In this document: one piece after another, positions 18,452 to 44,932 of the stretch
Layout: each line of letters opens with the position of its first letter
How positions within the stretch are numbered: position 1 is the stretch's first letter
From: Escherichia coli
GTDB taxonomy: Bacteria > Pseudomonadota > Gammaproteobacteria > Enterobacterales > Enterobacteriaceae
Direction: 5' to 3' (one strand)
Length of the DNA: 64,000 nt
NCBI RefSeq assembly: GCF_044324785.1
Contig: NZ_CP172127.1
The notes under the pieces: generated by a model
The model's input: the letters and a program-made list of their open reading frames with translations, nothing else
Told to the model about the DNA's origin: nothing
Databases searched by the model: none
Position numbers and translations under genes: made by a program

Positions 18452-19545
18452 TAACGTCCCTCAAAATCTATACGCGGATCGACCAGCGTATAGCTGATAT
18501 CACTGACAATATTCAGCAGCAGGCCAATCAGGGTGAAAATATACAAGGTACCAAACATTACAGGATAATCGCGCGAGACGGTCGCTTCGTAGCCCAGTAA
18601 GCCAAGACCATTGAGTGAAAACATCACCTCAATCAGCAGCGAGCCGGTAAAAAACATGCTGATAAACGTCGCCGGAAAACCGGCAATCACCAGCAGCATG
18701 GCGTTGCGGAACACATGTTTCCAGAGAATATTTTTTTCACTTACCCCTTTCGCTCGGGCGGTCACCACGTATTGCTTACGCACTTCATCAAGGAATGAGT
18801 TTTTTGTCAGCATGGTCAGCGCCGCAAAGCCGCCAATCACTGTCGCCAGCACCGGCAGCGTGATATGCCACAGATAATCGGTGATTTTCTGATACCACGG
18901 CAGCGAATCAAAGTTAGCGGAAACCAGGCCGCGCAGAGGGAACAGGTCGAAATAGCTGCCGCCCGCGAAGAAGACAATCAGCAGGATGGCAAACAAAAAG
19001 GCCGGAATGGCGTAGCCGATGATGATAAATGCACTACTCCAGACGTCAAAGCGGCTACCATTATAAACAGCTTTGCGAATGCCTAACGGAATCGACACCA
19101 GATAGATAATCAGCGTGCTCCATAATCCGAGGGTGATGGAAACTGGCAGACTATCTTTAATCAGCGTCAGCACCGAGGCGCTGCGAAAAAGGCTGTCGCC
19201 AAAATCAAAGCGGATGTAGTCCCAGAGCATTTTGAAGTAACGTTCGTGGATCGGCTTATCGAAACCGTAGCGATGAGTGATCTCGGCGATCACTTCTGGA
19301 TCTAATCCGCGTCCACCACGGTAATTACTGTCGCTGATATTGCCGACGCCCGTTTGCGCATGGCTGGCGCGAACACCTTCACCGCTTGCGCCGGGTAATA
19401 CTCCGGCATTACCAAACTCAATGGCGGCGATAGCCTGGTCGACCGGACCGCCAGGCGCAATTTGCACTATGAAAAAGTTGATAGTGATAATCGCCCATAA
19501 CGTTGGGATCACCAGCAACAGACGGCGAATCAGATAAGCGCCCAT
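18451..19545 (-). CDS. yejB: ABC transporter permease (Opp/Dpp-like)
   Basis: 364-aa polytopic membrane protein; 1-nt overlap with yejE. Confidence 0.9.
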
Positions 19546-30228: not shown

Positions 30229-31359
30229 ATGTTCCAGTTATCCGTACAGGACATCCATCCGGGCGAAAAGGCCGGAGACAAAGAAGAGGCTATTCGCCAA
30301 GTCGCTGCGGCGCTGGTGCAGGCCGGTAATGTAGCTGAAGGCTACGTCAATGGCATGCTGGCGCGCGAACAGCAAACCTCTACGTTCCTCGGCAATGGTA
30401 TTGCTATTCCACACGGCACTACCGACACCCGCGATCAGGTGCTGAAAACCGGCGTTCAGGTATTTCAGTTCCCGGAAGGCGTCACCTGGGGTGACGGCCA
30501 GGTAGCGTACGTGGCGATCGGTATTGCTGCCAGCTCGGATGAACATTTGGGCCTGCTACGCCAGCTGACCCACGTACTGAGCGATGATTCCGTTGCTGAA
30601 CAACTGAAGTCAGCAACAACAGCAGAAGAACTTCGCGCATTGCTGATGGGCGAAAAGCAGAGTGAGCAGCTGAAGCTCGACAACGAAATGCTGACGCTGG
30701 ATATCGTCGCCAGCGATCTGCTGACTCTTCAGGCGCTGAACGCTGCTCGTCTGAAAGAGGCGGGGGCAGTTGACGCCACTTTCGTCACCAAAGCCATCAA
30801 TGAACAACCGCTGAACCTCGGACAGGGTATCTGGCTGAGCGATAGCGCCGAAGGCAATCTGCGTAGCGCGATTGCGGTAAGCCGTGCGGCAAATGCTTTT
30901 GATGTGGACGGCGAAACGGCAGCCATGCTGGTGAGTGTGGCGATGAATGACGATCAGCCCATTGCGGTTCTTAAGCGTCTCGCTGATTTGTTACTCGACA
31001 ATAAAGCTGACCGCTTGCTGAAAGCGGATGCGGCAACGTTGCTGGCGCTGCTGACCAGCGATGATGCGCCGACCGACGACGTGTTAAGCGCGGAGTTTGT
31101 GGTGCGCAATGAACACGGCCTGCATGCTCGTCCAGGTACCATGCTGGTCAATACCATTAAACAATTTAACAGTGATATTACCGTGACAAACCTTGATGGC
31201 ACCGGCAAACCGGCAAACGGACGTAGTCTGATGAAAGTTGTGGCACTTGGCGTTAAGAAAGGTCATCGCCTACGCTTTACCGCCCAGGGTGCAGATGCTG
31301 AACAGGCGCTGAAAGCCATTGGCGACGCTATCGCTGCTGGTCTTGGGGAGGGCGCATAA
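30229..31359 (+). CDS. fruB: Fructose PTS multiphosphoryl transfer protein FruB (EIIA-Fru / FPr)
   Basis: 376 aa; N-terminal EIIA domain, C-terminal HPr-like domain; strong RBS (gagaggag). Confidence 0.95.
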
Positions 31360-32297
31360 TGAGCAGACGTGTTGCTACTATCACCCTTAATCCGGCTTAT
31401 GACCTTGTTGGTTTCTGCCCGGAAATTGAACGCGGCGAAGTGAACCTGGTGAAAACCACCGGTCTGCATGCGGCGGGTAAAGGCATCAACGTGGCCAAAG
31501 TATTAAAAGACCTGGGAATTGATGTCACCGTTGGTGGCTTCCTCGGTAAAGACAATCAGGATGGTTTTCAGCAACTGTTCAGCGAGCTGGGCATTGCCAA
31601 CCGTTTCCAGGTTGTACAGGGGCGCACCCGAATTAACGTTAAGCTGACGGAAAAAGACGGCGAAGTGACCGACTTCAACTTCTCGGGTTTTGAAGTCACT
31701 CCCGCCGACTGGGAACGCTTTGTGACTGATTCTCTGAGCTGGCTCGGTCAGTTCGATATGGTCTGTGTCAGCGGAAGCTTACCGTCAGGCGTCAGCCCGG
31801 AAGCGTTCACCGACTGGATGACTCGCCTGCGTAGTCAGTGTCCTTGCATTATCTTTGATAGTAGCCGTGAAGCGTTAGTGGCAGGTTTGAAAGCGGCACC
31901 GTGGCTGGTGAAACCTAACCGCCGCGAGCTGGAAATCTGGGCAGGCCGTAAACTGCCTGAAATGAAAGATGTGATTGAAGCTGCGCATGCGCTGCGTGAA
32001 CAAGGTATCGCGCATGTCGTTATTTCACTGGGTGCCGAAGGCGCGCTTTGGGTTAATGCCTCCGGCGAATGGATCGCCAAACCACCGTCAGTCGATGTCG
32101 TAAGCACCGTTGGCGCAGGGGATTCTATGGTTGGTGGCCTGATTTATGGCTTGCTGATGCGTGAATCCAGTGAACACACACTGCGTCTGGCGACAGCTGT
32201 TGCAGCCCTGGCGGTAAGTCAAAGCAATGTGGGTATTACCGATCGTCCGCAGTTGGCCGCAATGATGGCGCGCGTCGACTTACAACCTTTTAACTGA
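31359..32297 (+). CDS. fruK: 1-phosphofructokinase FruK
   Basis: 312 aa PfkB-family kinase; 1-nt overlap with fruB. Confidence 0.95.
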   Translation: MSRRVATITLNPAYDLVGFCPEIERGEVNLVKTTGLHAAGKGINVAKVLKDLGIDVTVGGFLGKDNQDGFQQLFSELGIANRFQVVQGRTRINVKLTEKDGEVTDFNFSGFEVTPADWERFVTDSLSWLGQFDMVCVSGSLPSGVSPEAFTDWMTRLRSQCPCIIFDSSREALVAGLKAAPWLVKPNRRELEIWAGRKLPEMKDVIEAAHALREQGIAHVVISLGAEGALWVNASGEWIAKPPSVDVVSTVGAGDSMVGGLIYGLLMRESSEHTLRLATAVAALAVSQSNVGITDRPQLAAMMARVDLQPFN

Positions 32298-32313
32298 CAG
32301 CAGGAGAGGCATA

Positions 32314-34005
32314 ATGAAAACGCTGCTGATTATTGACGCTAATCTCGGTCAGGCACGCGCCTATATGGCGAAGACCCTGCTGGGCGCGGCGGCGCGAAAA
32401 GCAAAACTGGAAATCATCGACAATCCGAACGACGCTGAAATGGCGATTGTTCTCGGTGATTCCATCCCGAACGACAGCGCGCTGAACGGTAAAAATGTCT
32501 GGCTGGGCGATATTTCCCGGGCAGTTGCGCACCCTGAGCTGTTCCTGAGTGAAGCCAAAGGCCATGCGAAACCTTACACTGCGCCGGTCGCTGCGGCAGC
32601 ACCGGTTGCCGCCAGCGGTCCGAAACGCGTAGTTGCGGTGACTGCTTGCCCGACTGGCGTAGCACACACCTTTATGGCGGCTGAAGCCATTGAAACCGAA
32701 GCGAAAAAACGTGGCTGGTGGGTGAAAGTTGAAACCCGTGGTTCGGTTGGCGCGGGTAATGCAATCACCCCTGAAGAAGTAGCCGCAGCGGATCTGGTGA
32801 TTGTGGCGGCAGATATTGAAGTGGATCTGGCGAAATTTGCTGGTAAACCGATGTATCGCACCTCTACCGGTCTGGCGCTGAAGAAAACCGCGCAGGAGCT
32901 GGATAAAGCGGTTGCTGAAGCAACGCCGTATGAACCGGCGGGCAAAGCTCAAACGGCGACCACTGAAGGTAAGAAAGAGAGTGCAGGCGCTTATCGTCAC
33001 TTGCTGACGGGCGTTTCTTACATGCTGCCGATGGTCGTTGCAGGTGGTCTGTGTATCGCGCTTTCCTTTGCTTTTGGTATCGAAGCGTTTAAAGAGCCGG
33101 GTACGTTGGCAGCGGCGCTGATGCAGATTGGTGGTGGTTCAGCCTTTGCGCTGATGGTGCCGGTACTGGCAGGTTATATTGCCTTCTCCATTGCCGATCG
33201 TCCGGGTCTCACGCCGGGTCTGATTGGCGGTATGCTGGCGGTCAGCACTGGTTCTGGCTTCATTGGCGGTATTATTGCGGGCTTCCTGGCTGGTTACATT
33301 GCGAAGTTAATCAGTACGCAATTGAAACTGCCACAGAGTATGGAGGCGCTGAAACCGATTCTGATCATTCCGCTAATTTCCAGTCTGGTGGTCGGTCTGG
33401 CGATGATCTACCTGATCGGTAAACCGGTTGCTGGCATTCTCGAAGGGTTGACTCACTGGCTGCAGACCATGGGGACTGCGAATGCGGTTCTGCTGGGGGC
33501 GATCCTCGGTGGCATGATGTGTACTGACATGGGCGGTCCGGTAAACAAAGCAGCGTACGCGTTCGGTGTGGGTCTGCTGAGTACTCAAACCTATGGCCCG
33601 ATGGCGGCGATTATGGCGGCAGGTATGGTGCCACCGCTGGCAATGGGCCTGGCAACAATGGTGGCGCGTCGCAAATTCGACAAAGCGCAGCAGGAAGGGG
33701 GCAAAGCCGCTCTGGTATTGGGACTGTGCTTCATTTCGGAAGGTGCAATTCCGTTTGCTGCTCGTGATCCGATGCGTGTGCTGCCGTGCTGTATCGTGGG
33801 TGGGGCGCTGACTGGCGCAATCTCAATGGCGATTGGTGCGAAACTGATGGCACCGCACGGTGGTCTGTTTGTTCTGCTGATCCCTGGCGCGATTACGCCG
33901 GTATTGGGTTACCTGGTAGCCATTATTGCCGGTACGCTGGTGGCGGGTCTGGCCTATGCCTTCCTGAAACGTCCGGAAGTGGACGCAGTAGCGAAAGTAG
34001 CTTAA
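32314..34005 (+). CDS. fruA: Fructose PTS EIIB'BC component FruA
   Basis: 563 aa; duplicated N-terminal EIIB-type domains then polytopic EIIC. Confidence 0.95.
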   Translation: MKTLLIIDANLGQARAYMAKTLLGAAARKAKLEIIDNPNDAEMAIVLGDSIPNDSALNGKNVWLGDISRAVAHPELFLSEAKGHAKPYTAPVAAAAPVAASGPKRVVAVTACPTGVAHTFMAAEAIETEAKKRGWWVKVETRGSVGAGNAITPEEVAAADLVIVAADIEVDLAKFAGKPMYRTSTGLALKKTAQELDKAVAEATPYEPAGKAQTATTEGKKESAGAYRHLLTGVSYMLPMVVAGGLCIALSFAFGIEAFKEPGTLAAALMQIGGGSAFALMVPVLAGYIAFSIADRPGLTPGLIGGMLAVSTGSGFIGGIIAGFLAGYIAKLISTQLKLPQSMEALKPILIIPLISSLVVGLAMIYLIGKPVAGILEGLTHWLQTMGTANAVLLGAILGGMMCTDMGGPVNKAAYAFGVGLLSTQTYGPMAAIMAAGMVPPLAMGLATMVARRKFDKAQQEGGKAALVLGLCFISEGAIPFAARDPMRVLPCCIVGGALTGAISMAIGAKLMAPHGGLFVLLIPGAITPVLGYLVAIIAGTLVAGLAYAFLKRPEVDAVAKVA

Positions 34006-34018
34006 TAAAACGTGAACG

Positions 34019-34043
34019 ACAGGGCAGAAATTTCCTGCCCTGT
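34019..34043 (+). terminator. Hairpin immediately 3' of fruA (weak terminator, no strong T-run)
   Basis: 9-bp stem acagggcag/ctgccctgt with 7-nt loop. Confidence 0.45.
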
Positions 34044-34159
34044 ATCATTTGAAGATCGCAAGGTGACTGACTAGTTCTTGAGGGTAACTATATGAATTTT
34101 ATGTTTTTATCTTTAAGTTGAAACCAGAAATCTCATCAAACGTTAATGTTATTTCCTCA

Positions 34160-34187
34160 AGGGCAGATTATTTTCTGCCCTTTTTTA
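34160..34187 (+). terminator. Rho-independent terminator in the fruA-psuK spacer
   Basis: Stem agggcaga/tctgccct followed by a 6-T run; stem sequence nearly identical to the hairpin at 34019. Confidence 0.7.
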
Positions 34188-34326
34188 TTGTTCCTGTTCT
34201 GTGCATCCCGTCACAAATTCCCCGTTTTTATAATTCAGGCATTTAATCGCGTTTTGTGAGCCTGCTCAAATCTGCCCATTTTGCCTCTCTGGCGGTAATT
34301 TACTTTACGTAAAACATGCATACTAT

Positions 34327-34360
34327 GAGCACATGTTTAAATATGAACACATGTTTAAAC
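34327..34360. promoter_or_regulatory. Tandem direct repeats (candidate operator) upstream of psuK
   Basis: gagcacatgtttaaat and gaacacatgtttaaac, 18-bp period, each with palindromic cores (acatgt, tttaaa). Confidence 0.3.
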
Positions 34361-34426
34361 CGTCTTTGCAGTATCAATATTCTTGTGGATTGACAGGGTT
34401 GGTAATTTTTTACCAGAGGACGTGCT

Positions 34427-35368
34427 ATGCGCGAAAAGGATTATGTCGTAATTATAGGTTCGGCGAATATTGATGTCGCCGGATATTCACATGAATCATT
34501 AAATTATGCGGATTCAAATCCAGGTAAAATAAAATTTACGCCTGGTGGAGTCGGGCGCAATATTGCACAAAACCTGGCGTTGCTGGGGAACAAAGCCTGG
34601 CTACTGAGCGCCGTAGGCAGTGATTTTTATGGTCAATCGCTGCTAACGCAAACCAATCAATCTGGCGTTTATGTCGATAAATGCCTGATAGTGCCGGGAG
34701 AAAATACGTCAAGCTATTTATCATTACTCGATAATACCGGTGAAATGCTGGTTGCTATAAATGACATGAATATTAGCAACGCTATTACAGCTGAATATCT
34801 CGCACAGCACCGTGAATTTATTCAGAGGGCAAAGGTCATTGTCGCAGACTGTAATATCAGTGAAGAGGCACTGGCATGGATTCTGGATAATGCCGCCAAC
34901 GTACCTGTATTTGTCGATCCTGTTTCCGCGTGGAAATGTGTCAAAGTGCGCGACCGTCTAAATCAAATCCACACTCTCAAGCCAAACCGCCTTGAAGCGG
35001 AAACCCTGAGTGGGATTGCGCTGTCAGGGCGTGAAGATGTGGCAAAAGTTGCTGCCTGGTTCCATCAACATGGCCTGAACCGACTGGTATTGAGCATGGG
35101 CGGCGACGGCGTTTATTACAGCGATATCAGCGGTGAAAGTGGCTGGTCTGCGCCGATCAAAACCAATGTTATTAATGTTACCGGAGCGGGCGATGCCATG
35201 ATGGCGGGGCTTGCTTCGTGTTGGGTAGACGGAATGCCGTTTGCCGAATCTGTTCGTTTCGCACAGGGATGTTCGTCAATGGCGCTCTCCTGTGAATACA
35301 CCAATAACCCCGATTTATCGATTGCCAACGTTATATCGTTAGTGGAGAACGCAGAATGTCTGAATTAA
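34427..35368 (+). CDS. psuK: Pseudouridine kinase (PfkB family)
   Basis: 313 aa; PfkB motifs (GGVGRN; C-terminal GAGD). Confidence 0.9.
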   Translation: MREKDYVVIIGSANIDVAGYSHESLNYADSNPGKIKFTPGGVGRNIAQNLALLGNKAWLLSAVGSDFYGQSLLTQTNQSGVYVDKCLIVPGENTSSYLSLLDNTGEMLVAINDMNISNAITAEYLAQHREFIQRAKVIVADCNISEEALAWILDNAANVPVFVDPVSAWKCVKVRDRLNQIHTLKPNRLEAETLSGIALSGREDVAKVAAWFHQHGLNRLVLSMGGDGVYYSDISGESGWSAPIKTNVINVTGAGDAMMAGLASCWVDGMPFAESVRFAQGCSSMALSCEYTNNPDLSIANVISLVENAECLN

Positions 35369-36294
35369 AAATTTCCCCTGAATTATTACAAATTTCCCCA
35401 GAAGTGCAGGACGCTTTAAAAAACAAAAAACCGATCGTGGCGCTGGAATCGACCATTATTTCTCACGGGATGCCGTTCCCACAAAATGCCCAGACCGCAA
35501 TTGAAGTTGAAGAAACTATTCGTAAACAGGGCGCGGTACCTGCCACTATCGCCATTATTGGCGGCGTGATGAAAGTGGGTTTAAGCAAAGAAGAAATTGA
35601 ATTGCTGGGTCGTGAAGGGCATAACGTGACCAAAGTTAGTCGTCGCGATTTACCTTTTGTTGTTGCCGCAGGGAAAAATGGCGCAACCACCGTTGCTTCA
35701 ACGATGATTATTGCGGCGCTTGCCGGAATTAGAGTATTTGCCACCGGGGGAATTGGTGGTGTGCATCGCGGGGCGGAACATACCTTCGATATTTCTGCCG
35801 ATTTGCAAGAGCTGGCAAATACTAATGTCACCGTTGTTTGTGCCGGGGCGAAATCTATTCTCGATTTAGGATTAACCACTGAGTATTTAGAAACTTTCGG
35901 TGTACCGCTAATTGGCTATCAGACCAAAGCGCTGCCTGCGTTTTTCTGCCGTACCAGCCCGTTTGACGTCAGCATTCGTCTCGACAGCGCCAGTGAAATT
36001 GCCCGTGCAATGGCGGTGAAATGGCAAAGCGGGCTGAACGGTGGCCTCGTGGTAGCGAACCCGATCCCGGAACAGTTTGCGATGCCGGAGGAATCTATCA
36101 ATGCAGCCATAGATCAAGCCGTCGCCGAAGCCGAAGAGCAGGGCGTTATTGGTAAAGAAAGCACACCGTTCCTGCTGGCTCGTGTTGCTGAACTGACTGG
36201 CGGTGACAGCCTGAAATCCAACATCCAGCTGGTGTTCAACAACGCCATTCTGGCGAGCGAAATTGCCAAAGAATATCAGCGTCTCGCGGGTTAA
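35356..36294 (+). CDS. psuG: Pseudouridine-5'-phosphate glycosidase
   Basis: 312 aa; 13-nt overlap with psuK. Confidence 0.9.
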   Translation: MSELKISPELLQISPEVQDALKNKKPIVALESTIISHGMPFPQNAQTAIEVEETIRKQGAVPATIAIIGGVMKVGLSKEEIELLGREGHNVTKVSRRDLPFVVAAGKNGATTVASTMIIAALAGIRVFATGGIGGVHRGAEHTFDISADLQELANTNVTVVCAGAKSILDLGLTTEYLETFGVPLIGYQTKALPAFFCRTSPFDVSIRLDSASEIARAMAVKWQSGLNGGLVVANPIPEQFAMPEESINAAIDQAVAEAEEQGVIGKESTPFLLARVAELTGGDSLKSNIQLVFNNAILASEIAKEYQRLAG

Positions 36295-36321
36295 TTTCTG
36301 ACGGGCAGAAAGCCGTCGCCC
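36294..36321 (+). repeat. Conserved 28-nt leader element, copy 1 (upstream of psuT)
   Basis: atttctgacgggcagaaagccgtcgccc; near-identical copy at 39522..39549. Confidence 0.6.
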
Positions 36322-36387
36322 GTACTCATCAAGCATACCAAAACCTGGCGCTGACGCCGGGTTTACTGGCATGAAGGGAAAATCATT

Positions 36388-37638
36388 ATGGATATAATGA
36401 GAAGTGTTGTGGGGATGGTGGTGTTACTGGCAATAGCATTTCTGTTGTCAGTGAATAAAAAGAGCATCAGTTTGCGCACGGTTGGAGCCGCACTGCTGCT
36501 GCAAATTGCCATTGGTGGCATCATGCTCTATTTTCCGCCGGGAAAATGGGCAGTAGAACAGGCGGCATTAGGCGTTCATAAAGTGATGTCTTACAGTGAT
36601 GCCGGTAGCGCCTTCATTTTTGGTTCGCTGGTCGGGCCGAAAATGGATGTCCTCTTTGACGGTGCGGGTTTTATCTTTGCCTTTCGCGTACTCCCGGCGA
36701 TTATCTTCGTCACTGCGCTCATCAGCCTGCTGTACTACATTGGCGTGATGGGGCTGCTAATCCGCATTCTTGGCAGTATTTTTCAGAAAGCCCTCAACAT
36801 CAGCAAAATCGAATCTTTTGTTGCGGTTACTACTATTTTCCTCGGGCAAAATGAGATCCCGGCGATCGTAAAACCGTTTATCGATCGCATGAATCGCAAC
36901 GAGCTATTTACGGCAATTTGTAGCGGGATGGCGTCCATTGCCGGTTCGATGATGATTGGTTATGCCGGAATGGGCGTACCAATTGACTACCTGTTAGCGG
37001 CATCGCTGATGGCGATCCCTGGTGGTATTTTGTTTGCACGTATTCTTAGCCCAGCCACCGAGCCTTCGCAGGTGACATTTGAAAATCTGTCGTTCAGCGA
37101 AACGCCGCCAAAAAGCTTTATCGAAGCAGCGGCGAGCGGTGCGATGACCGGGTTGAAAATCGCCGCTGGTGTGGCGACGGTGGTAATGGCGTTTGTCGCA
37201 ATTATTGCGCTGATCAACGGTATTATCGGCGGAATTGGCGGCTGGTTTGGTTTTGCCAATGCCTCTCTGGAAAGTATTTTTGGCTATGTGCTGGCACCGC
37301 TGGCGTGGATCATGGGTGTGGACTGGAGTGATGCCAACCTGGCGGGTAGCCTGATTGGGCAGAAACTGGCGATTAACGAATTCGTCGCTTACCTGAGTTT
37401 CTCCCCATACCTGCAAACGGGCGGCACGCTGGAAGTGAAAACCATTGCGATTATCTCCTTTGCGCTTTGTGGTTTTGCTAACTTTGGTTCTATCGGTGTT
37501 GTCGTTGGCGCATTTTCGGCTATTTCGCCAAAACGCGCACCGGAAATCGCCCAGCTTGGTTTACGGGCGCTGGCAGCTGCCACGCTTTCCAACCTGATGA
37601 GCGCGACTATTGCCGGGTTCTTTATTGGTTTAGCTTGA
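36388..37638 (+). CDS. psuT: NupC-family (CNT) nucleoside transporter
   Basis: 416-aa polytopic membrane protein; highly similar along its length to the ORF at 39575..40825. Confidence 0.9.
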   Translation: MDIMRSVVGMVVLLAIAFLLSVNKKSISLRTVGAALLLQIAIGGIMLYFPPGKWAVEQAALGVHKVMSYSDAGSAFIFGSLVGPKMDVLFDGAGFIFAFRVLPAIIFVTALISLLYYIGVMGLLIRILGSIFQKALNISKIESFVAVTTIFLGQNEIPAIVKPFIDRMNRNELFTAICSGMASIAGSMMIGYAGMGVPIDYLLAASLMAIPGGILFARILSPATEPSQVTFENLSFSETPPKSFIEAAASGAMTGLKIAAGVATVVMAFVAIIALINGIIGGIGGWFGFANASLESIFGYVLAPLAWIMGVDWSDANLAGSLIGQKLAINEFVAYLSFSPYLQTGGTLEVKTIAIISFALCGFANFGSIGVVVGAFSAISPKRAPEIAQLGLRALAAATLSNLMSATIAGFFIGLA

Positions 37639-37705: not shown

Positions 37706-38365
37706 TTACTGCATCATCCCGGAGAATTTATTCTCCGGGTCCATCTCCAGTGCCAGTCCTGACAACTGCTTTCTGTTTTTAATTAGATACCCTTTCTTGC
37801 TTTTAATTAATAAACCGTCGTGAATGAATTGCGCGAGAACATATAAAAGATGTCGATAAGAAACGCCTAAATACTCTGCCGCTTGCGTATGCTTTTCGTG
37901 ATAAAGATCACCTTCCTGCGAGAGTAATATAAAAGCTGCCAGGCGATTCACTAATGGAAATGATTGATTCTGAGTTAAAGAAACAATATTACGATAATTT
38001 TTATGACTTAAGGTGACGCAGAGTTTTCGTAAAAATAGCGTGTCGTTTAATAACAGCGGGCGGTAATGTTTCATAGGGAGCGCAAGGCACCAACACTCTT
38101 CAATAGCCTGCACCGCACGCGGTTCATGGTCTTTGTCGATTAACTCAATCTCGCCAATAAAACAGGGGGCGGCAAAGAAATCGATCAGCGACACGCGACC
38201 ATTAGCTAGCGTGGCGTAAAGCCTGGCGCGGCCTCGCGTCAGGTAAAACAGCCAGGACGGCTGTTGCCCTTCCTGCACAATGTAGTCACGCGCTAAAAAA
38301 TGAAACAGCCGCGTATCGGCTGAAACATCCGTTGAAAAGCAATCCTTAAACGCGGATTCACTCAT
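37706..38365 (-). CDS. yeiL: CRP/FNR-family transcriptional regulator YeiL
   Basis: 219 aa from internal Met (MSESAF); N-terminal nucleotide-binding-like domain, C-terminal HTH; Cys residues. Confidence 0.8.
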
Positions 38366-38533
38366 CAATTGCTGCTTAAGATCATTATTGTGGATTTCTT
38401 TCACGATGTTTATCCGCTATGAGATTTCTCATATTTAGCATACGTACGCTGTTGTTAAGATTCAATCATCGGCCCGGTCGAATTTTCTTTGCTGTAGAAA
38501 AAATAACGCAACTGGAAACAGAGGAAATAAACA

Positions 38534-39475
38534 ATGGAAAAGAGAAAAATTATTCTGGATTGTGATCCGGGTCATGATGATGCTATTGCAATGATGATGG
38601 CAGCGAAACATCCGGCGATTGATTTATTAGGTATCACCATTGTAGCGGGTAATCAGACGCTTGATAAAACATTAATTAATGGCCTGAATGTTTGCCAGAA
38701 ACTGGAGATTAATGTTCCGGTTTATGCGGGGATGCCACAGCCCATTATGCGGCAACAAATTGTTGCCGATAATATTCACGGTGAAACCGGACTGGATGGC
38801 CCGGTATTCGAGCCGCTGACCCGCCAGGCAGAAAGCACTCATGCGGTGAAATATATCATCGATACCCTGATGGCAAGCGATGGCGATATCACTCTGGTGC
38901 CGGTTGGTCCGCTTTCAAATATCGCGGTGGCAATGCGTATGCAACCCGCGATCCTGCCCAAAATCCGTGAAATTGTGCTAATGGGCGGCGCTTACGGTAC
39001 AGGCAACTTCACCCCATCTGCCGAGTTCAACATCTTTGCCGACCCGGAAGCCGCACGCGTGGTGTTCACCTCCGGCGTTCCGTTGGTGATGATGGGCCTC
39101 GATCTCACCAACCAGACTGTTTGCACCCCGGACGTGATTGCCCGGATGGAAAGGGTAGGCGGCCCCGCCGGAGAGCTGTTCAGCGACATCATGAATTTCA
39201 CTCTAAAAACGCAGTTCGAAAACTACGGCCTGGCTGGCGGCCCGGTGCATGACGCCACCTGCATCGGTTATCTGATTAACCCTGATGGCATTAAAACCCA
39301 GGAGATGTACGTCGAAGTGGACGTTAACAGCGGCCCTTGCTACGGGCGTACGGTCTGCGACGAGCTGGGCGTTCTTGGCAAGCCCGCCAATACCAAAGTC
39401 GGCATCACTATTGATACCGACTGGTTCTGGGGATTAGTCGAAGAGTGCGTGCGCGGCTACATCAAAACCCATTAA
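38534..39475 (+). CDS. rihB: Pyrimidine-specific ribonucleoside hydrolase RihB
   Basis: 313 aa; N-terminal DxDxxxDD nucleoside-hydrolase motif (DCDPGHDD). Confidence 0.9.
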
Positions 39476-39521
39476 GTGTTGATAACAAGCCGGATCAGTG
39501 TCGCAAGATGCAGGCCCGGCT

Positions 39522-39549
39522 ATTTCTGATGGGCAGAAAGCCGTCGCCC
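39522..39549 (+). repeat. Conserved 28-nt leader element, copy 2 (upstream of nupX)
   Basis: atttctgatgggcagaaagccgtcgccc; one mismatch to copy 1. Confidence 0.6.
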
Positions 39550-39574
39550 AAAATGACATGAAGAGATAATAACT

Positions 39575-40825
39575 ATGGATGTCATGAGAAGTGTTCTGGG
39601 AATGGTGGTATTGCTGGCAATTGCGTTTTTGCTGTCAGTAAACAAGAAGAAGATCAGCCTGCGTACCGTTGGCGCGGCGTTAGTGTTACAGGTCGTGATT
39701 GGCGGCATTATGCTTTGGTTACCGCCAGGGCGTTGGGTCGCAGAAAAAGTCGCTTTTGGCGTGCATAAAGTGATGGCGTACAGCGACGCGGGTAGCGCAT
39801 TTATCTTTGGTTCTCTGGTCGGACCGAAAATGGACACCTTATTTGATGGCGCAGGATTTATCTTTGGCTTCAGGGTATTACCGGCAATTATCTTCGTTAC
39901 AGCACTGGTGAGTATTCTCTACTACATCGGTGTGATGGGGATCTTAATTCGAATTCTCGGCGGTATATTCCAGAAAGCATTGAATATCAGCAAGATCGAG
40001 TCATTCGTCGCGGTTACTACCATTTTCCTCGGGCAAAACGAAATTCCGGCAATCGTCAAACCCTTTATCGATCGTCTGAATCGCAATGAATTATTTACAG
40101 CGATTTGTAGTGGCATGGCCTCGATTGCTGGTTCGACAATGATTGGTTATGCCGCTCTGGGCGTGCCTGTGGAATATCTGCTGGCGGCATCGTTAATGGC
40201 GATCCCCGGCGGGATCTTGTTTGCCCGCCTGTTAAGCCCGGCTACCGAATCTTCGCAGGTTTCCTTTAATAACCTCTCTTTCACCGAAACACCGCCAAAA
40301 AGCATTATTGAAGCCGCCGCTACAGGGGCAATGACCGGGCTGAAAATCGCAGCAGGTGTGGCGACAGTGGTGATGGCATTTGTTGCCATCATTGCGTTGA
40401 TTAACGGAATTATCGGCGGCGTTGGCGGCTGGTTTGGTTTTGAACATGCCTCGCTGGAGTCAATTTTAGGTTATCTGTTGGCTCCACTGGCGTGGGTGAT
40501 GGGGGTTGACTGGAGTGATGCGAATCTTGCCGGGAGTTTGATTGGACAGAAACTGGCGATTAATGAATTTGTCGCTTACCTCAATTTCTCACCTTATCTG
40601 CAAACAGCTGGCACTCTGGATGCTAAAACCGTGGCGATTATTTCTTTCGCGTTGTGCGGTTTCGCTAACTTTGGTTCTATCGGGGTGGTGGTTGGCGCAT
40701 TTTCTGCGGTTGCGCCACACCGTGCACCGGAAATCGCCCAGCTTGGTTTACGCGCGCTGGCGGCGGCGACACTTTCTAACCTGATGAGTGCCACCATTGC
40801 AGGATTCTTTATTGGCTTAGCGTAG
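39575..40825 (+). CDS. nupX: NupC-family (CNT) nucleoside transporter
   Basis: 416 aa, paralog of psuT with long identical blocks. Confidence 0.9.
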   Translation: MDVMRSVLGMVVLLAIAFLLSVNKKKISLRTVGAALVLQVVIGGIMLWLPPGRWVAEKVAFGVHKVMAYSDAGSAFIFGSLVGPKMDTLFDGAGFIFGFRVLPAIIFVTALVSILYYIGVMGILIRILGGIFQKALNISKIESFVAVTTIFLGQNEIPAIVKPFIDRLNRNELFTAICSGMASIAGSTMIGYAALGVPVEYLLAASLMAIPGGILFARLLSPATESSQVSFNNLSFTETPPKSIIEAAATGAMTGLKIAAGVATVVMAFVAIIALINGIIGGVGGWFGFEHASLESILGYLLAPLAWVMGVDWSDANLAGSLIGQKLAINEFVAYLNFSPYLQTAGTLDAKTVAIISFALCGFANFGSIGVVVGAFSAVAPHRAPEIAQLGLRALAAATLSNLMSATIAGFFIGLA

Positions 40826-40880: not shown

Positions 40881-41969
40881 TTACACCATCGGCACTAATG
40901 AAAGCGCGTTTTCGGCAGACAGGGTAGGGTTGTTTAAGCTGCCGCTGGCGCGTGAAATTGCCGCGCAGGCCATCGCAAAACGGGCGCTGTCACGGAAATT
41001 GTTTCCCTCCAGAAAGCTATATACCAGGCCCGCCATAAAACCATCGTCAGCACCAAAACTGTCTACTGTCGTATGCGCTGGCGCTGTCAGCAAAAATTGT
41101 TCTCCATCCTTTTCGCTGCAATAAACTGACTCATCGGGCAAATAAACAAACAGTTGCTGAACACCTTGCTGATGCAACGTATTCACTGCGGCATTACGGT
41201 CAGCATCGCTGGTGATCGCCTGTCCCCATAAAATTTCCAGCTCCGGTAAAGTGGGTTTCAGGGTGTGAATATGCGCCAGCCAGTGTTTGATTTTGCCCGC
41301 TTTGAATTCTGAAACGGTATCGACAAACACCGGGATTTCATCAGCGAGGGTAAAGACCCACTCCAGCGCCTCGGCTGTCAGGTTGCAATCAGCAAGTACC
41401 ACGCCCGCATGACGAAGTAAATCGCGCGACCCGTTCAGTAGTTGCGGTGTCAACTGATCCAGCAGATGGGTATCGTTAATCGCCAGCACGGTTTGATCGT
41501 CTCGATTGGCAATTGCCAGATACGTCGATGTGCTTTGACCATGTAAACGAACGCAGCCGGAGACATTCACGCCGGCGCGGCGCGTTTCTTCCAGGAGCAT
41601 TTCGCCATAAAAGTCATCGCCAATCACTGAAAGCAAATGGACGTCGCGGCCTAACAGCGCCAAATTGTGGGCGATATTGCGCCCCACGCCGCCCGCCGAG
41701 CAATGAATTGTACCGGGATGAGAAGCCGCTTGCGGGTAACGGATATCCGCCATCCCGCGAATATCCATATTGATTGTCCCCACCACTACGCAGTATTCCT
41801 GCTCGGTGAGAATGTAACCTTTGCCTTTAATTCGACCTTTGCGCATTAAATCCATAATATGCGCCGCAACGCGCGAACGGCTGATTTGCAGCATATCAGC
41901 AATTTCGTTCTGCTGAATCAGCGGGTTACGCCGTAAAATTGCAAGGATCTCCTTCTCCCGGTTGTTCAT
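40881..41969 (-). CDS. yeiI: HTH-domain fused to PfkB-family carbohydrate/nucleoside kinase (YeiI)
   Basis: 362 aa; N-terminal ~55-aa HTH, remainder clearly homologous to PsuK (shared GGVGRNIA-NLALLG block). Confidence 0.85.
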   Translation of the reverse strand: MNNREKEILAILRRNPLIQQNEIADMLQISRSRVAAHIMDLMRKGRIKGKGYILTEQEYCVVVGTINMDIRGMADIRYPQAASHPGTIHCSAGGVGRNIAHNLALLGRDVHLLSVIGDDFYGEMLLEETRRAGVNVSGCVRLHGQSTSTYLAIANRDDQTVLAINDTHLLDQLTPQLLNGSRDLLRHAGVVLADCNLTAEALEWVFTLADEIPVFVDTVSEFKAGKIKHWLAHIHTLKPTLPELEILWGQAITSDADRNAAVNTLHQQGVQQLFVYLPDESVYCSEKDGEQFLLTAPAHTTVDSFGADDGFMAGLVYSFLEGNNFRDSARFAMACAAISRASGSLNNPTLSAENALSLVPMV

Positions 41970-41971
41970 CT

Positions 41972-42829
41972 TCAGGCTACCGCTTTTTCAGTTTGTTGCG
42001 CTTTCAGCCAGGCGATCTCTTCTGCCCAGATATCCGGGTTGATGGTTTCAAGGATCAGCGGAATGCCGTCGAAACGGTCGTCCTGCATGATCCAGCGGAA
42101 CGCATCATGACCGATATTGCCTTCACCGAGGCTATGATGGCGGTCAACGCGGCTGCCAAAGGTGCTTTTCGCATCGTTAAGGTGCATCCCGCGCAGATAC
42201 TTAAAGCCGACAATACGGGCAAAATCAGCGAACGTTTTCTCGCATTCGGCTGGAGTACGCAAATCATACCCGGCAGCAAAAGCATGGCAGGTATCAATGC
42301 AGACGCCGACGCGGGATTTATCTTCCACGCCGTCGATAATCGCCGCGAGATGTTCGAATTTAAACCCTAAGTTACTGCCCTGACCGGCGGTGTTTTCAAT
42401 CACCGCTGTTACACCTTGAGTTTTATCCAGCGCAATGTTGATGGATTCAGCAATACGCGCAAGGCAATCCTCTTCTGAAATCTGCATCAGATGGCTGCCA
42501 GGGTGGAAGTTGAGCAAAGAAAGCCCCAGCTGTTCGCAACGCTGCATTTCATCTATAAACGCATCGCGCGATTTTTCCAGAGCTTCAGCGACCGGATGTC
42601 CGAGGTTAATCAGATAACTGTCGTGGGGAAGAATTTGCGCCGATGTGTAGTGATATTTTTCACAGGCGGCTTTGAATTCATCGATGGTTTGCGTCGTGAG
42701 CGGTGCGGCACGCCACTGACGTTGGTTTTTGGTGAACAAGGCAAACGCGGTTGCGTCGATTTCGGCGGCGCGAATTGCGGCATTTGCCAGACCGCCAGCA
42801 GCACTAACGTGCGCTCCAATGTATTTCAT
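41972..42829 (-). CDS. nfo: Endonuclease IV (AP endonuclease)
   Basis: 285 aa TIM-barrel AP endonuclease; 2-nt gap to yeiI downstream. Confidence 0.95.
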
Positions 42830-44050: not shown

Positions 44051-44932
44051 ATGCACATCACCCTCCGGCAGTTGGAAGTTTTTGCAGAAGTATTGAAAAG
44101 TGGATCAACCACCCAGGCGTCGGTGATGCTGGCGTTGTCGCAATCAGCAGTGAGCGCAGCCTTGACCGACCTGGAAGGGCAGCTTGGCGTGCAACTGTTT
44201 GATCGCGTGGGGAAAAGACTGGTTGTTAATGAACACGGGCGGCTGCTCTATCCGCGCGCGTTGGCACTGCTTGAACAGGCGGTTGAAATCGAACAACTGT
44301 TTCGCGAAGACAACGGCGCGATTCGTATCTATGCCAGTAGTACTATCGGTAACTACATTCTGCCTGCAGTCATTGCCCGTTATCGCCATGATTATCCGCA
44401 GTTGCCGATTGAACTTAGCGTTGGGAACAGCCAGGACGTGATGCAAGCGGTGCTGGATTTCCGCGTTGATATTGGCTTTATTGAAGGACCGTGCCACAGC
44501 ACTGAAATCATTTCTGAACCGTGGCTGGAAGACGAGCTGGTGGTTTTCGCCGCGCCGACTTCGCCATTGGCTCGTGGTCCGGTCACCTTAGAACAGCTGG
44601 CCGCTGCGCCGTGGATCCTTCGTGAACGCGGCTCCGGCACGCGGGAGATTGTCGATTATCTGTTGCTGTCACATTTACCGAAGTTTGAGATGGCGATGGA
44701 ATTAGGTAACTCCGAGGCAATCAAACATGCGGTGCGTCATGGGTTGGGAATTAGTTGCCTGTCGCGACGGGTGATTGAAGATCAATTGCAGGCAGGCACA
44801 TTAAGTGAAGTTGCGGTCCCTCTGCCGCGCCTGATGCGTACGTTGTGGCGTATACATCATCGGCAAAAACACCTTTCCAACGCGCTACGGCGCTTTCTGG
44901 ACTATTGCGATCCCGCGAATGTACCGCGTTAA
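44051..44932 (+). CDS. yeiE: LysR-type transcriptional regulator YeiE
   Basis: 293 aa; N-terminal wHTH, C-terminal substrate-binding domain. Confidence 0.85.

Follow-up and report, generated by a model that had tools for sequence, protein, structure and literature searches.

The 64-kb stretch of DNA analysed here (the window) is a segment of an Escherichia chromosome in which fruBKA (30229-34005, plus strand) is followed by the pseudouridine genes psuK, psuG and psuT. The 421-nt spacer between fruA and the psuK start codon (ATG at 34427) contains a tandem repeat, which had been flagged from the letters alone as a possible operator (the original prediction). As set out below, this repeat is best read as a pair of palindromic sites, O1 and O2, at a predicted promoter, and the best candidate for the protein binding them is YeiI, which joins a winged helix-turn-helix (wHTH) to a kinase-like domain. 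The genes concerned are the following.

34427-35368, plus strand: psuK, from the open reading frame (ORF) and the RefSeq annotation of homologous E. coli loci
35356-36294, plus strand: psuG, on the same basis
36388-37638, plus strand: psuT, on the same basis
34427-37638, plus strand: candidate regulated operon psuK-psuG-psuT
40881-41969, minus strand: yeiI, candidate repressor, with a wHTH (residues 1-48) and a PfkB pseudouridine-kinase-like domain

Two 16-bp copies, gagcacatgtttaaat at 34327-34342 and gaacacatgtttaaac at 34345-34360, start 18 bp apart and lie 67-100 nt upstream of the psuK ATG, preceded by AAACATG at 34312-34318, so that the sequence at 34308-34360 reads as originally described. 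A repeat search extends the unit to 18 nt, TATGAGCACATGTTTAAA (34324-34341) and TATGAACACATGTTTAAA (34342-34359), which are exactly tandem and 17/18 identical (94%). This is the sole tandem unit with a period of 12-30 and at most one mismatch in the 64 kb, and none of 60 dinucleotide shuffles yielded such a unit with a period of at least 18; the 18-nt repeat thus exceeds chance. No further copy of the 16-mer with fewer than three mismatches was found in the window. The palindromic cores that had also been proposed are present as dyads, the conserved unit being larger than ACATGT, namely a 12-bp inverted repeat of the form RAACA-NN-TGTTY. The element can therefore be laid out as follows.

34324-34359, plus strand: two 18-nt tandem repeat units, containing O1 and O2
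34327-34338, no strand: putative operator O1, GAGCA-CA-TGTTT, at about -6 to +6 from the predicted start
34345-34356, no strand: putative operator O2, GAACA-CA-TGTTT, at about +13 to +24, its centre 18 bp from that of O1
34312-34318, plus strand: AAACATG, matching the CATGTTT arm in inverted orientation and located in the promoter spacer, from the repeat search, with AAAACAnGC conserved in the alignment described below

Taken as a 12-mer, AAACATG matches the consensus at 6/10 positions and stands 15 bp, not 18 bp, from O1; it is possibly an extra half-site of uncertain role.

An alignment of the 270 nt upstream of psuK from 11 species (Escherichia, Citrobacter, Buttiauxella and a Raoultella metagenome-assembled genome, MAG), with one genome per species, shows how the two sites have been kept. 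The AACA and TGTT positions of both are invariant and the flanks vary (conserved form RAACA-NN-TGYTY), and the central dinucleotide drifts between CA, TG, CG and TA; invariant arms around a drifting centre are the hallmark of recognition by a symmetric dimer. In the species other than Escherichia the second repeat has the sequence GAACATGTGCTC and remains palindromic, so that the direct repeat is not conserved and its appearance is confined to the common Escherichia allele. A near-perfect 18-nt repeat with so narrow a distribution could be a functionless local tandem duplication. However, the region shows no change in length relative to other genera and hence no insertion, both sites are kept as palindromes from Escherichia to Shewanella, and of the 4376 E. 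coli genomes having the region, 3274 match the 70 bp around the repeat at 99% identity or more, while the upstream spacer diverges, its first 150 nt being clearly more variable among E. coli genomes. A functionless duplication is contradicted by these conservation data and is hardly credible.

Two allele classes of the psuK promoter coexist in E. coli, as about 1000 of 5426 complete genomes have a strongly divergent one resembling that of E. albertii. In E. coli CAVP776 (L028:7300-7562, compared with window 34180-34426) the divergent allele has the hexamers TTTACA (-35) and TATTAT (-10), which are nearer to consensus, and it keeps both palindromes, GAACATGTGTTT and GAACACGTGCTC. Two single-nucleotide polymorphisms (SNPs) sampled in E. 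coli fall outside the 12-bp cores, one in the spacer between the sites and one just after O2.

The same motif recurs at the psu operons of distant genera. When all 5-N(0-8)-5 inverted repeats with at most one mismatch were enumerated in 15 psu upstream regions, with no motif preselected, AAACA-N2-TGTTT ranked first with occurrences in 13/15 regions, whereas across 500 shuffled sets the most frequent pattern reached 8. A pair of palindromes 18-19 bp apart is found at the psu promoter in 12/15 loci, covering Enterobacterales, Pasteurellaceae, Vibrionaceae, Shewanella and Ferrimonas. Pasteurella and Chelonobacter have AAACAAAAGTTG and AAACAGGTGTTG, and Yersinia has AGACACATGTTT and AAACAAGTGTCC, each pair 18 bp apart; the spacing is likewise 18 bp in Photorhabdus, Affinibrenneria and a further locus, L026, and 19 bp in Shewanella, Aliivibrio and Ferrimonas. 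When both strands of all 243 kb of the 15 loci were scanned for pairs with this spacing (18-19 bp) and a score of 16/20 or more against the consensus, 13 matches were returned, of which 12 are psu promoters, the O1-O2 pair scoring 17/20. The thirteenth, GAACAGGCGGTT and GAACAACTGTTT (18 bp apart, 16/20) at 44273-44302, lies within the yeiE coding sequence (44051-44932) and is probably due to chance.

Symmetrising 28 sites gives the consensus YRAACANNTGTTYR, in which C4 and G9 are invariant; the full palindrome is YRAACA-NN-TGTTYR. Yersinia, Serratia, Photorhabdus and Xenorhabdus have an additional solitary distal site, which is perfect in Yersinia (AACCAAACA-CT-TGTTTGGTT), and at locus L025 the site AAGCATGTGCTT begins one base past a promoter of the form TTGACT-17-TATAAT. 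The order in the Yersinia group (-35 TTTACT, 17 nt, -10, O1) matches that in E. coli. Taken together, the phylogenetic footprint, the recurrence at psu operons of distant genera and the overlap with the predicted start (see below) bear out the earlier suggestion of a multi-site operator; the sequence comparison strongly supports that the pair acts as such and that the functional unit is the palindrome pair, not the direct repeat.

Upstream of these sites, the spacer contains the elements of a predicted promoter.

34299-34304, plus strand: -35 hexamer TTTACT, with TTTAC invariant in 11 species
34321-34326, plus strand: -10 hexamer TACTAT, 16 nt from the -35, with TAnnAT invariant in the 11-species alignment
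34200-34215, plus strand: distal CRP-like box TGTGCatcccgTCACA, TGTGC-N6-TCACA, centred at about -125.5, a 9/10 match to TGTGA-N6-TCACA
34255-34270, plus strand: proximal CRP-like box TGTGAgcctgcTCAAA, TGTGA-N6-TCAAA, centred at about -70.5, a class I-type position

In the alignment, the invariant promoter blocks are TTTAC(T/A) and, 16 nt downstream, TA(C/T)(T/C)AT, and in Yersinia, Serratia, Photorhabdus and Xenorhabdus the -35 is found again as CTTTACT. Taken as -35 and -10 hexamers, these blocks predict, by geometry only, a sigma-70 promoter with a start near 34333, from which follow the above positions of O1, O2 and the CRP-like boxes. On the K-12 chromosome (NC_000913.3, minus strand) window 34290-34370 corresponds to about 2259433-2259353, O1 to 2259396-2259385, O2 to 2259378-2259367 and the predicted start to about 2,259,390, plus or minus 2. 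O1 begins directly after the conserved -10 and overlaps this predicted start, and the same juxtaposition with the -10 is seen in Yersinia, Serratia, Photorhabdus and L025. A generic promoter scan misses the psuK promoter, TTTACT/TACTAT being under its 9/12 rule. The -35 assignment is supported by an A-to-C change (top strand) at -126 relative to psuK, a SNP in the psuK/fruA intergenic region which was reported in 3/4 long-term stationary-phase populations (PMC7858067 supplement). Mapped via K-12 (position 2259422), it corresponds to window position 34301, where it changes T to G on the sense strand at the third base of the -35 and thereby turns TTTACT into TTGACT, a textbook up-mutation. The position is also among the parental differences in that study, which makes the independence of the three occurrences uncertain (PMC7858067).

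Of the CRP-like boxes, the distal one is conserved as TGTGn-N6-TCnCA and the proximal one is invariant as TTGTGA...TTCAtATCT across the 11 species, and TGTGA-N6 is also among the recurrent inverted repeats of the 15 psu upstream regions. The window holds 9 CRP-like matches at the 9/10 level against 2.0 expected, a number that none of 100 shuffles reached. CRP may therefore bind and activate at both boxes; psuK (yeiC) is not among the targets listed in the texts on CRP genomic SELEX and Footprint-seq.

With a start near 34333 most of the element would be transcribed, and the palindromes could act as RNA, pairing as a hairpin in the psuK 5' leader and affecting stability, termination or translation. 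An 11-bp hairpin (34335-45 with 34350-60) is indeed predicted in E. coli, a hairpin between the two consensus sites can be drawn in 7 species, and O2 abuts the start codon in those loci where a wHTH-kinase fusion gene opens the operon (the fused type, see below). Two similar palindromes are, however, complementary by construction, and the fold is unexceptional (z = -1.8, with 8/200 shuffles folding equally well); the covariation term is unfavourable (+0.47), most pairs never varying. A search of 33500-35000 against Rfam gave only an insignificant match to DapZ (E = 0.75). Moreover, O1 straddles the predicted start, the solitary distal palindromes of the Yersinia group lie upstream of the -35, and the inversion of the central dinucleotide between species (CA vs TG) is neutral for a symmetric dimer and not for an RNA. 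We thus regard an RNA element as improbable and return to the palindromes as sites on DNA.

To ask which protein might read them, the neighbourhood of yeiI has to be considered, which comprises the following further genes.

37706-38404, minus strand: yeiL
38534-39475, plus strand: rihB
39575-40825, plus strand: nupX
41972-42829, minus strand: nfo

Searching the loci with the window proteins by tblastn showed that in E. albertii, Citrobacter, Buttiauxella and the Raoultella MAG psuK-psuG-psuT is directly followed by the convergent yeiI-nfo pair. The block yeiL-rihB-nupX (37706-40825) is missing there and the operator is fully conserved; the block is present only in the loci of E. coli, E. whittamii and Escherichia sp. 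E1V33. As judged from these loci it is a recent insertion between psuT and yeiI, and the 88% identity of NupX to PsuT marks NupX as a recent duplicate.

This distribution bears directly on YeiL, a CRP/FNR-family protein which the original prediction had named beside YeiI as a plausible binder. Its gene lies 3.3 kb downstream and encodes a cNMP-binding domain with a Crp-type HTH, and a role in stationary phase or nitrogen starvation has been proposed in work cited in PMC3590769. Yet both palindromes are kept in the E. albertii, Citrobacter, Buttiauxella and Raoultella-MAG loci although these lack yeiL, as do all fused-type loci; the 5-N2-5 geometry is not that of CRP (N6) or FNR (N4); and the yeiL-rihB region contains no related site. 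On its phyletic distribution we rejected YeiL as the conserved binder, and that it binds the repeats at all appears very improbable. The search for the motif near rihB and nupX, suggested along with it, came out negative: no site lies upstream of rihB, nupX, yeiL, yeiI or nfo, and across the psuG-psuT, psuT-yeiL, yeiL-rihB, rihB-nupX, nupX-yeiI, nfo-yeiH and yeiH-yeiE spacers the only operator-like match is a weak one (7/10, in yeiH-yeiE). Exact 12-mers at 18709 and 44291 both lie within ORFs.

The picture for YeiI is a different one. A homologue search found 778 proteins, and the genomic context of twelve was fetched. In 10 loci (Yersinia, Serratia, Photorhabdus, Xenorhabdus, Pasteurella, Chelonobacter, Shewanella, Aliivibrio, Ferrimonas and L025) the operon opens with the wHTH-PfkB gene; psuG comes next, then usually a nucleoside transporter of the CNT family, and a separate HTH-less kinase is lacking. 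Affinibrenneria and L026 show the split arrangement known from E. coli. The statement that the psu operon encodes no regulator accordingly holds for the Escherichia/Citrobacter type, and fails for most other taxa, in which the first gene carries an HTH. Outside E. coli strains, the wHTH-PfkB gene adjoins psuG in 20/20 distinct loci examined; wherever the motif occurs, a wHTH-PfkB protein is encoded beside psuG, and the loci share no other regulator gene. As the sole DNA-binding protein co-occurring with the operator across loci, YeiI, already named in the original prediction, is favoured, on this comparative ground, as the best candidate binder of O1 and O2.

The called starts of the Yersinia and Serratia wHTH-kinases (MFKNKQVS..., L015:8001 and L016:8001) fall inside O1 (CACATGTTTAAAA). 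Alignment with homologues suggests that the true start lies 9 codons downstream (MTSREK), and both operators would then be located in the leader.

The palindromes could still be the operator of an unlinked transcription factor, e.g., a nucleoside, global or other regulator, YeiI being a predicted binder. In favour of this option, the psuK promoter resembles the CytR/DeoR promoters (deoP2, cdd, udp, nupG) in serving a nucleoside-scavenging operon with a presumed specific repressor and in having two CRP-like boxes about five helical turns (55 bp) apart, and TGTTTAAATATGAACA, between the two centres, matches the DeoR operator at 11/16 positions. Unlike at those promoters, however, no CytR octamer (GTTGCATT-like, at most one mismatch) occurs in 34006-34426 and no DeoR operator (at most three mismatches) in the window, and the candidate repressor sites lie downstream of the -10 and not between the predicted CRP sites. 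The solitary distal sites, including the perfect one of Yersinia, and the single site of L025 show that the unit is an N2-centred palindrome, which argues against an N8-centred, DeoR-like reading. Since the motif also tracks the wHTH-PfkB gene across four orders with no other regulator gene in common, we consider an unlinked factor unlikely, if the least unlikely of the alternatives to YeiI.

The domain content of YeiI is in line with such a role. Residues 1-48 match the Pfam family HTH_24 (E 1.2e-10, 41.2 bits vs a cut-off of 21.9), and the protein also matches PfkB (E 5.5e-68). In the AlphaFold2 model (predicted local distance difference test, pLDDT, 90.4) the wHTH is joined to a PsuK-like fold with a template modelling (TM) score of 0.96 to 7vtd; the wHTH itself comprises three helices and a beta wing (residues 3-54, block-mean pLDDT about 71-93). 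No solved structure with both a wHTH and a PfkB domain was found in the PDB. Among 46 sequences the wHTH residues R4, E5, L9, P16, Q20, R31, S32, A35, I38, K44 and G45 and the GKGY motif are invariant.

YeiI is about 38-40% identical to E. coli PsuK, while the fused operon-first proteins reach 41-60% (57-60% in Enterobacterales and Pasteurella, 41-45% in Shewanella and Aliivibrio). The anion-hole/catalytic-base motif of the PfkB domain is GAGD in PsuK and the fused forms, and GADD in E. coli YeiI, GADE in Affinibrenneria and GIDN in L026. Among 94 full-length homologues, the roughly 42 orthologues with at least 65% identity carry degenerate motifs (ASDD in one, GADD in the others), and those with at most 57% identity have GAGD (GCGD in four, whose loci are outside the fetched set), except for the split-type proteins of Affinibrenneria and L026. 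Where the locus was checked, 5/5 YeiI-type proteins with a degenerate motif (GADD, GADE or GIDN) come from split loci, and 10/10 fused proteins have GAGD. Against the NCBIfam pseudouridine-kinase model YeiI scores 257.9, the cut-off being 540. The sequence thus suggests that YeiI has lost kinase activity. A psuK mutant is described, in work cited in PMC12506659, as unable to use pseudouridine, which indicates that YeiI does not replace the kinase.

The ligand pocket, by comparison, appears to be retained. In the crystal structure of PsuK, pseudouridine is contacted by N14, D16, S30' (from the partner subunit), G41, V42, N45, Y97, N143, V166, S167 and K170 (PMC9247573); all 11 residues are invariant in YeiI and a twelfth, M114, is T, so that 11/12 contacts are kept. 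PsuK is a homodimer with the substrate pocket under a beta-thumb at the dimer interface. YeiI may thus be a pseudouridine-binding sensor-repressor derived from a bifunctional kinase-repressor. An HTH-coding remnant upstream of psuK was not detectable by tblastn.

From the sequence anatomy, conservation, co-occurrence and domain content observed above, we infer binding, repression, inducer, start site and CRP activation as parts of one scheme, which we hold to be probable: O1 and O2 would be operators over a CRP-assisted psuKGT promoter at which dimers of YeiI repress and pseudouridine (or its phosphate) induces. cAMP-CRP would aid RNA polymerase, the -35 of the promoter being weak. One YeiI dimer could occupy each palindrome, as PfkB folds dimerise, and with both O1 and O2 filled the start and the early transcribed region would be covered and RNA polymerase blocked. 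Pseudouridine or its phosphate, entering the kinase-like pocket under the lid at the dimer interface, would close the lid and shift the relative positions of the wHTH domains, upon which YeiI would dissociate from its sites, leading to induction of the operon.

Several points weigh against this scheme. The sites behind the consensus were picked by similarity, which inflates its information content, and because regions of related genera recur in the set (Escherichia/Citrobacter/Buttiauxella; Yersinia/Serratia/Photorhabdus) the 15 upstream regions amount to about 8 independent observations. Xenorhabdus has a weak proximal pair only, and L025 one clear site. With an 18-bp distance between their centres, the two dimers would sit on different helix faces, and cooperativity is therefore not obvious. 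Neither yeiI nor nfo is preceded by an operator, which would leave E. coli YeiI without autoregulation. An unlinked regulator with the same phyletic pattern is conceivable, the scans having covered the loci and not whole genomes, and YeiI appears in the literature only as uncharacterised or as a hypothetical transcription factor. In the searchable literature we found no account of a regulator of the psu pathway, of this operator, of a function for YeiI or of a transcription factor with a PfkB fold.

In the fused-type species (Yersinia, Serratia, Photorhabdus, Xenorhabdus, Pasteurellaceae, Shewanella, Aliivibrio and Ferrimonas) one polypeptide would be both the kinase and the presumed autorepressor. 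In the Escherichia/Citrobacter lineage a duplication would have split these roles, PsuK losing the HTH and keeping GAGD, and YeiI keeping the HTH and the pseudouridine contacts with GAGD changed to GADD. More generally, the psu systems might represent an undescribed gammaproteobacterial class of one-component regulators, in which an active pseudouridine kinase with its own wHTH represses its own operon through the YRAACA-NN-TGTTYR palindromes, duplicated and subfunctionalised in Escherichia/Citrobacter into PsuK and the pseudo-kinase sensor-repressor YeiI; for this wider proposal we see the chances as evenly balanced.

Apart from the operator, the locus shows some further features. The genes nfo and yeiI are separated by 2 nt, and since the same tight pair is kept in Citrobacter and Buttiauxella, the candidate repressor is probably co-transcribed with the endonuclease IV gene nfo. 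In the fruA-psuK spacer, two hairpins have GGGCAGA...TCTGCCC in common, one at 34021-34043 directly 3' of fruA and one at 34159-34182, which is followed by a T-run. They flank about 115 nt that form the part of the spacer most divergent between E. coli strains. For the region 34021-34190 neither a K-12 annotation nor an Rfam family was found, and it may represent a small transcript or else a terminator that was duplicated. In E. coli EC291 (L029:3001-3800) an IS1 element directly after the -35 region replaces psuK and the 5' part of psuG, and this allele is a natural knockout of the pseudouridine pathway.

Fusions of enzyme and repressor are known from E. coli, e.g., BirA (wHTH and biotin-protein ligase) and NadR (HTH and NMN adenylyltransferase/ribosylnicotinamide kinase). 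With these, the system described here would share an N-terminal (w)HTH on an enzyme of the controlled pathway, a dimer on a promoter-overlapping palindrome and a catalytic pocket reading the metabolic state, and the fused wHTH-PsuK of Yersinia, Pasteurella and Shewanella, first in its own operon, would be a direct analogue. It differs in that the catalytic domain is a PfkB ribokinase fold, of which a DNA-binding member is neither structurally solved nor described in the searchable literature, in having two 12-14-bp sites 18 bp apart instead of one long operator, and in that in E. coli the roles of enzyme and regulator lie on separate paralogues. NagC/Mlc (of the ROK family) and PurR of Bacillus subtilis are in turn regulators on kinase or phosphoribosyltransferase (PRT) folds whose catalysis was lost. 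YeiI likewise has a wHTH on an enzyme fold with the ligand pocket kept (11/12 contacts) and the catalytic motif altered (GADD). Its fold, however, is PfkB and not ROK/ASKHA or PRT, its loss of catalysis is deduced, and fused relatives that appear catalytically intact by their GAGD motif persist in sister lineages. YeiI therefore resembles both groups functionally without belonging to their families.

Among modified nucleosides pseudouridine is the most abundant, and urine contains much of it. In a urinary isolate, expression of psuK and psuG was raised after colonisation of the human bladder (PMC2928814). In this context, a concrete operator, a promoter model and a candidate repressor give YeiI, a conserved but functionally uncharacterised protein of E. 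coli, a role that can be tested, and the operator/YeiI pair could serve as a pseudouridine-responsive switch in strains that are being engineered to produce pseudouridine for mRNA manufacture. The psu locus also appears to be a clear instance from nature in which a fusion of enzyme and repressor was split into an enzyme and a sensor and, if the proposed regulation is true, the orphan gene yeiI of E. coli would gain its function.

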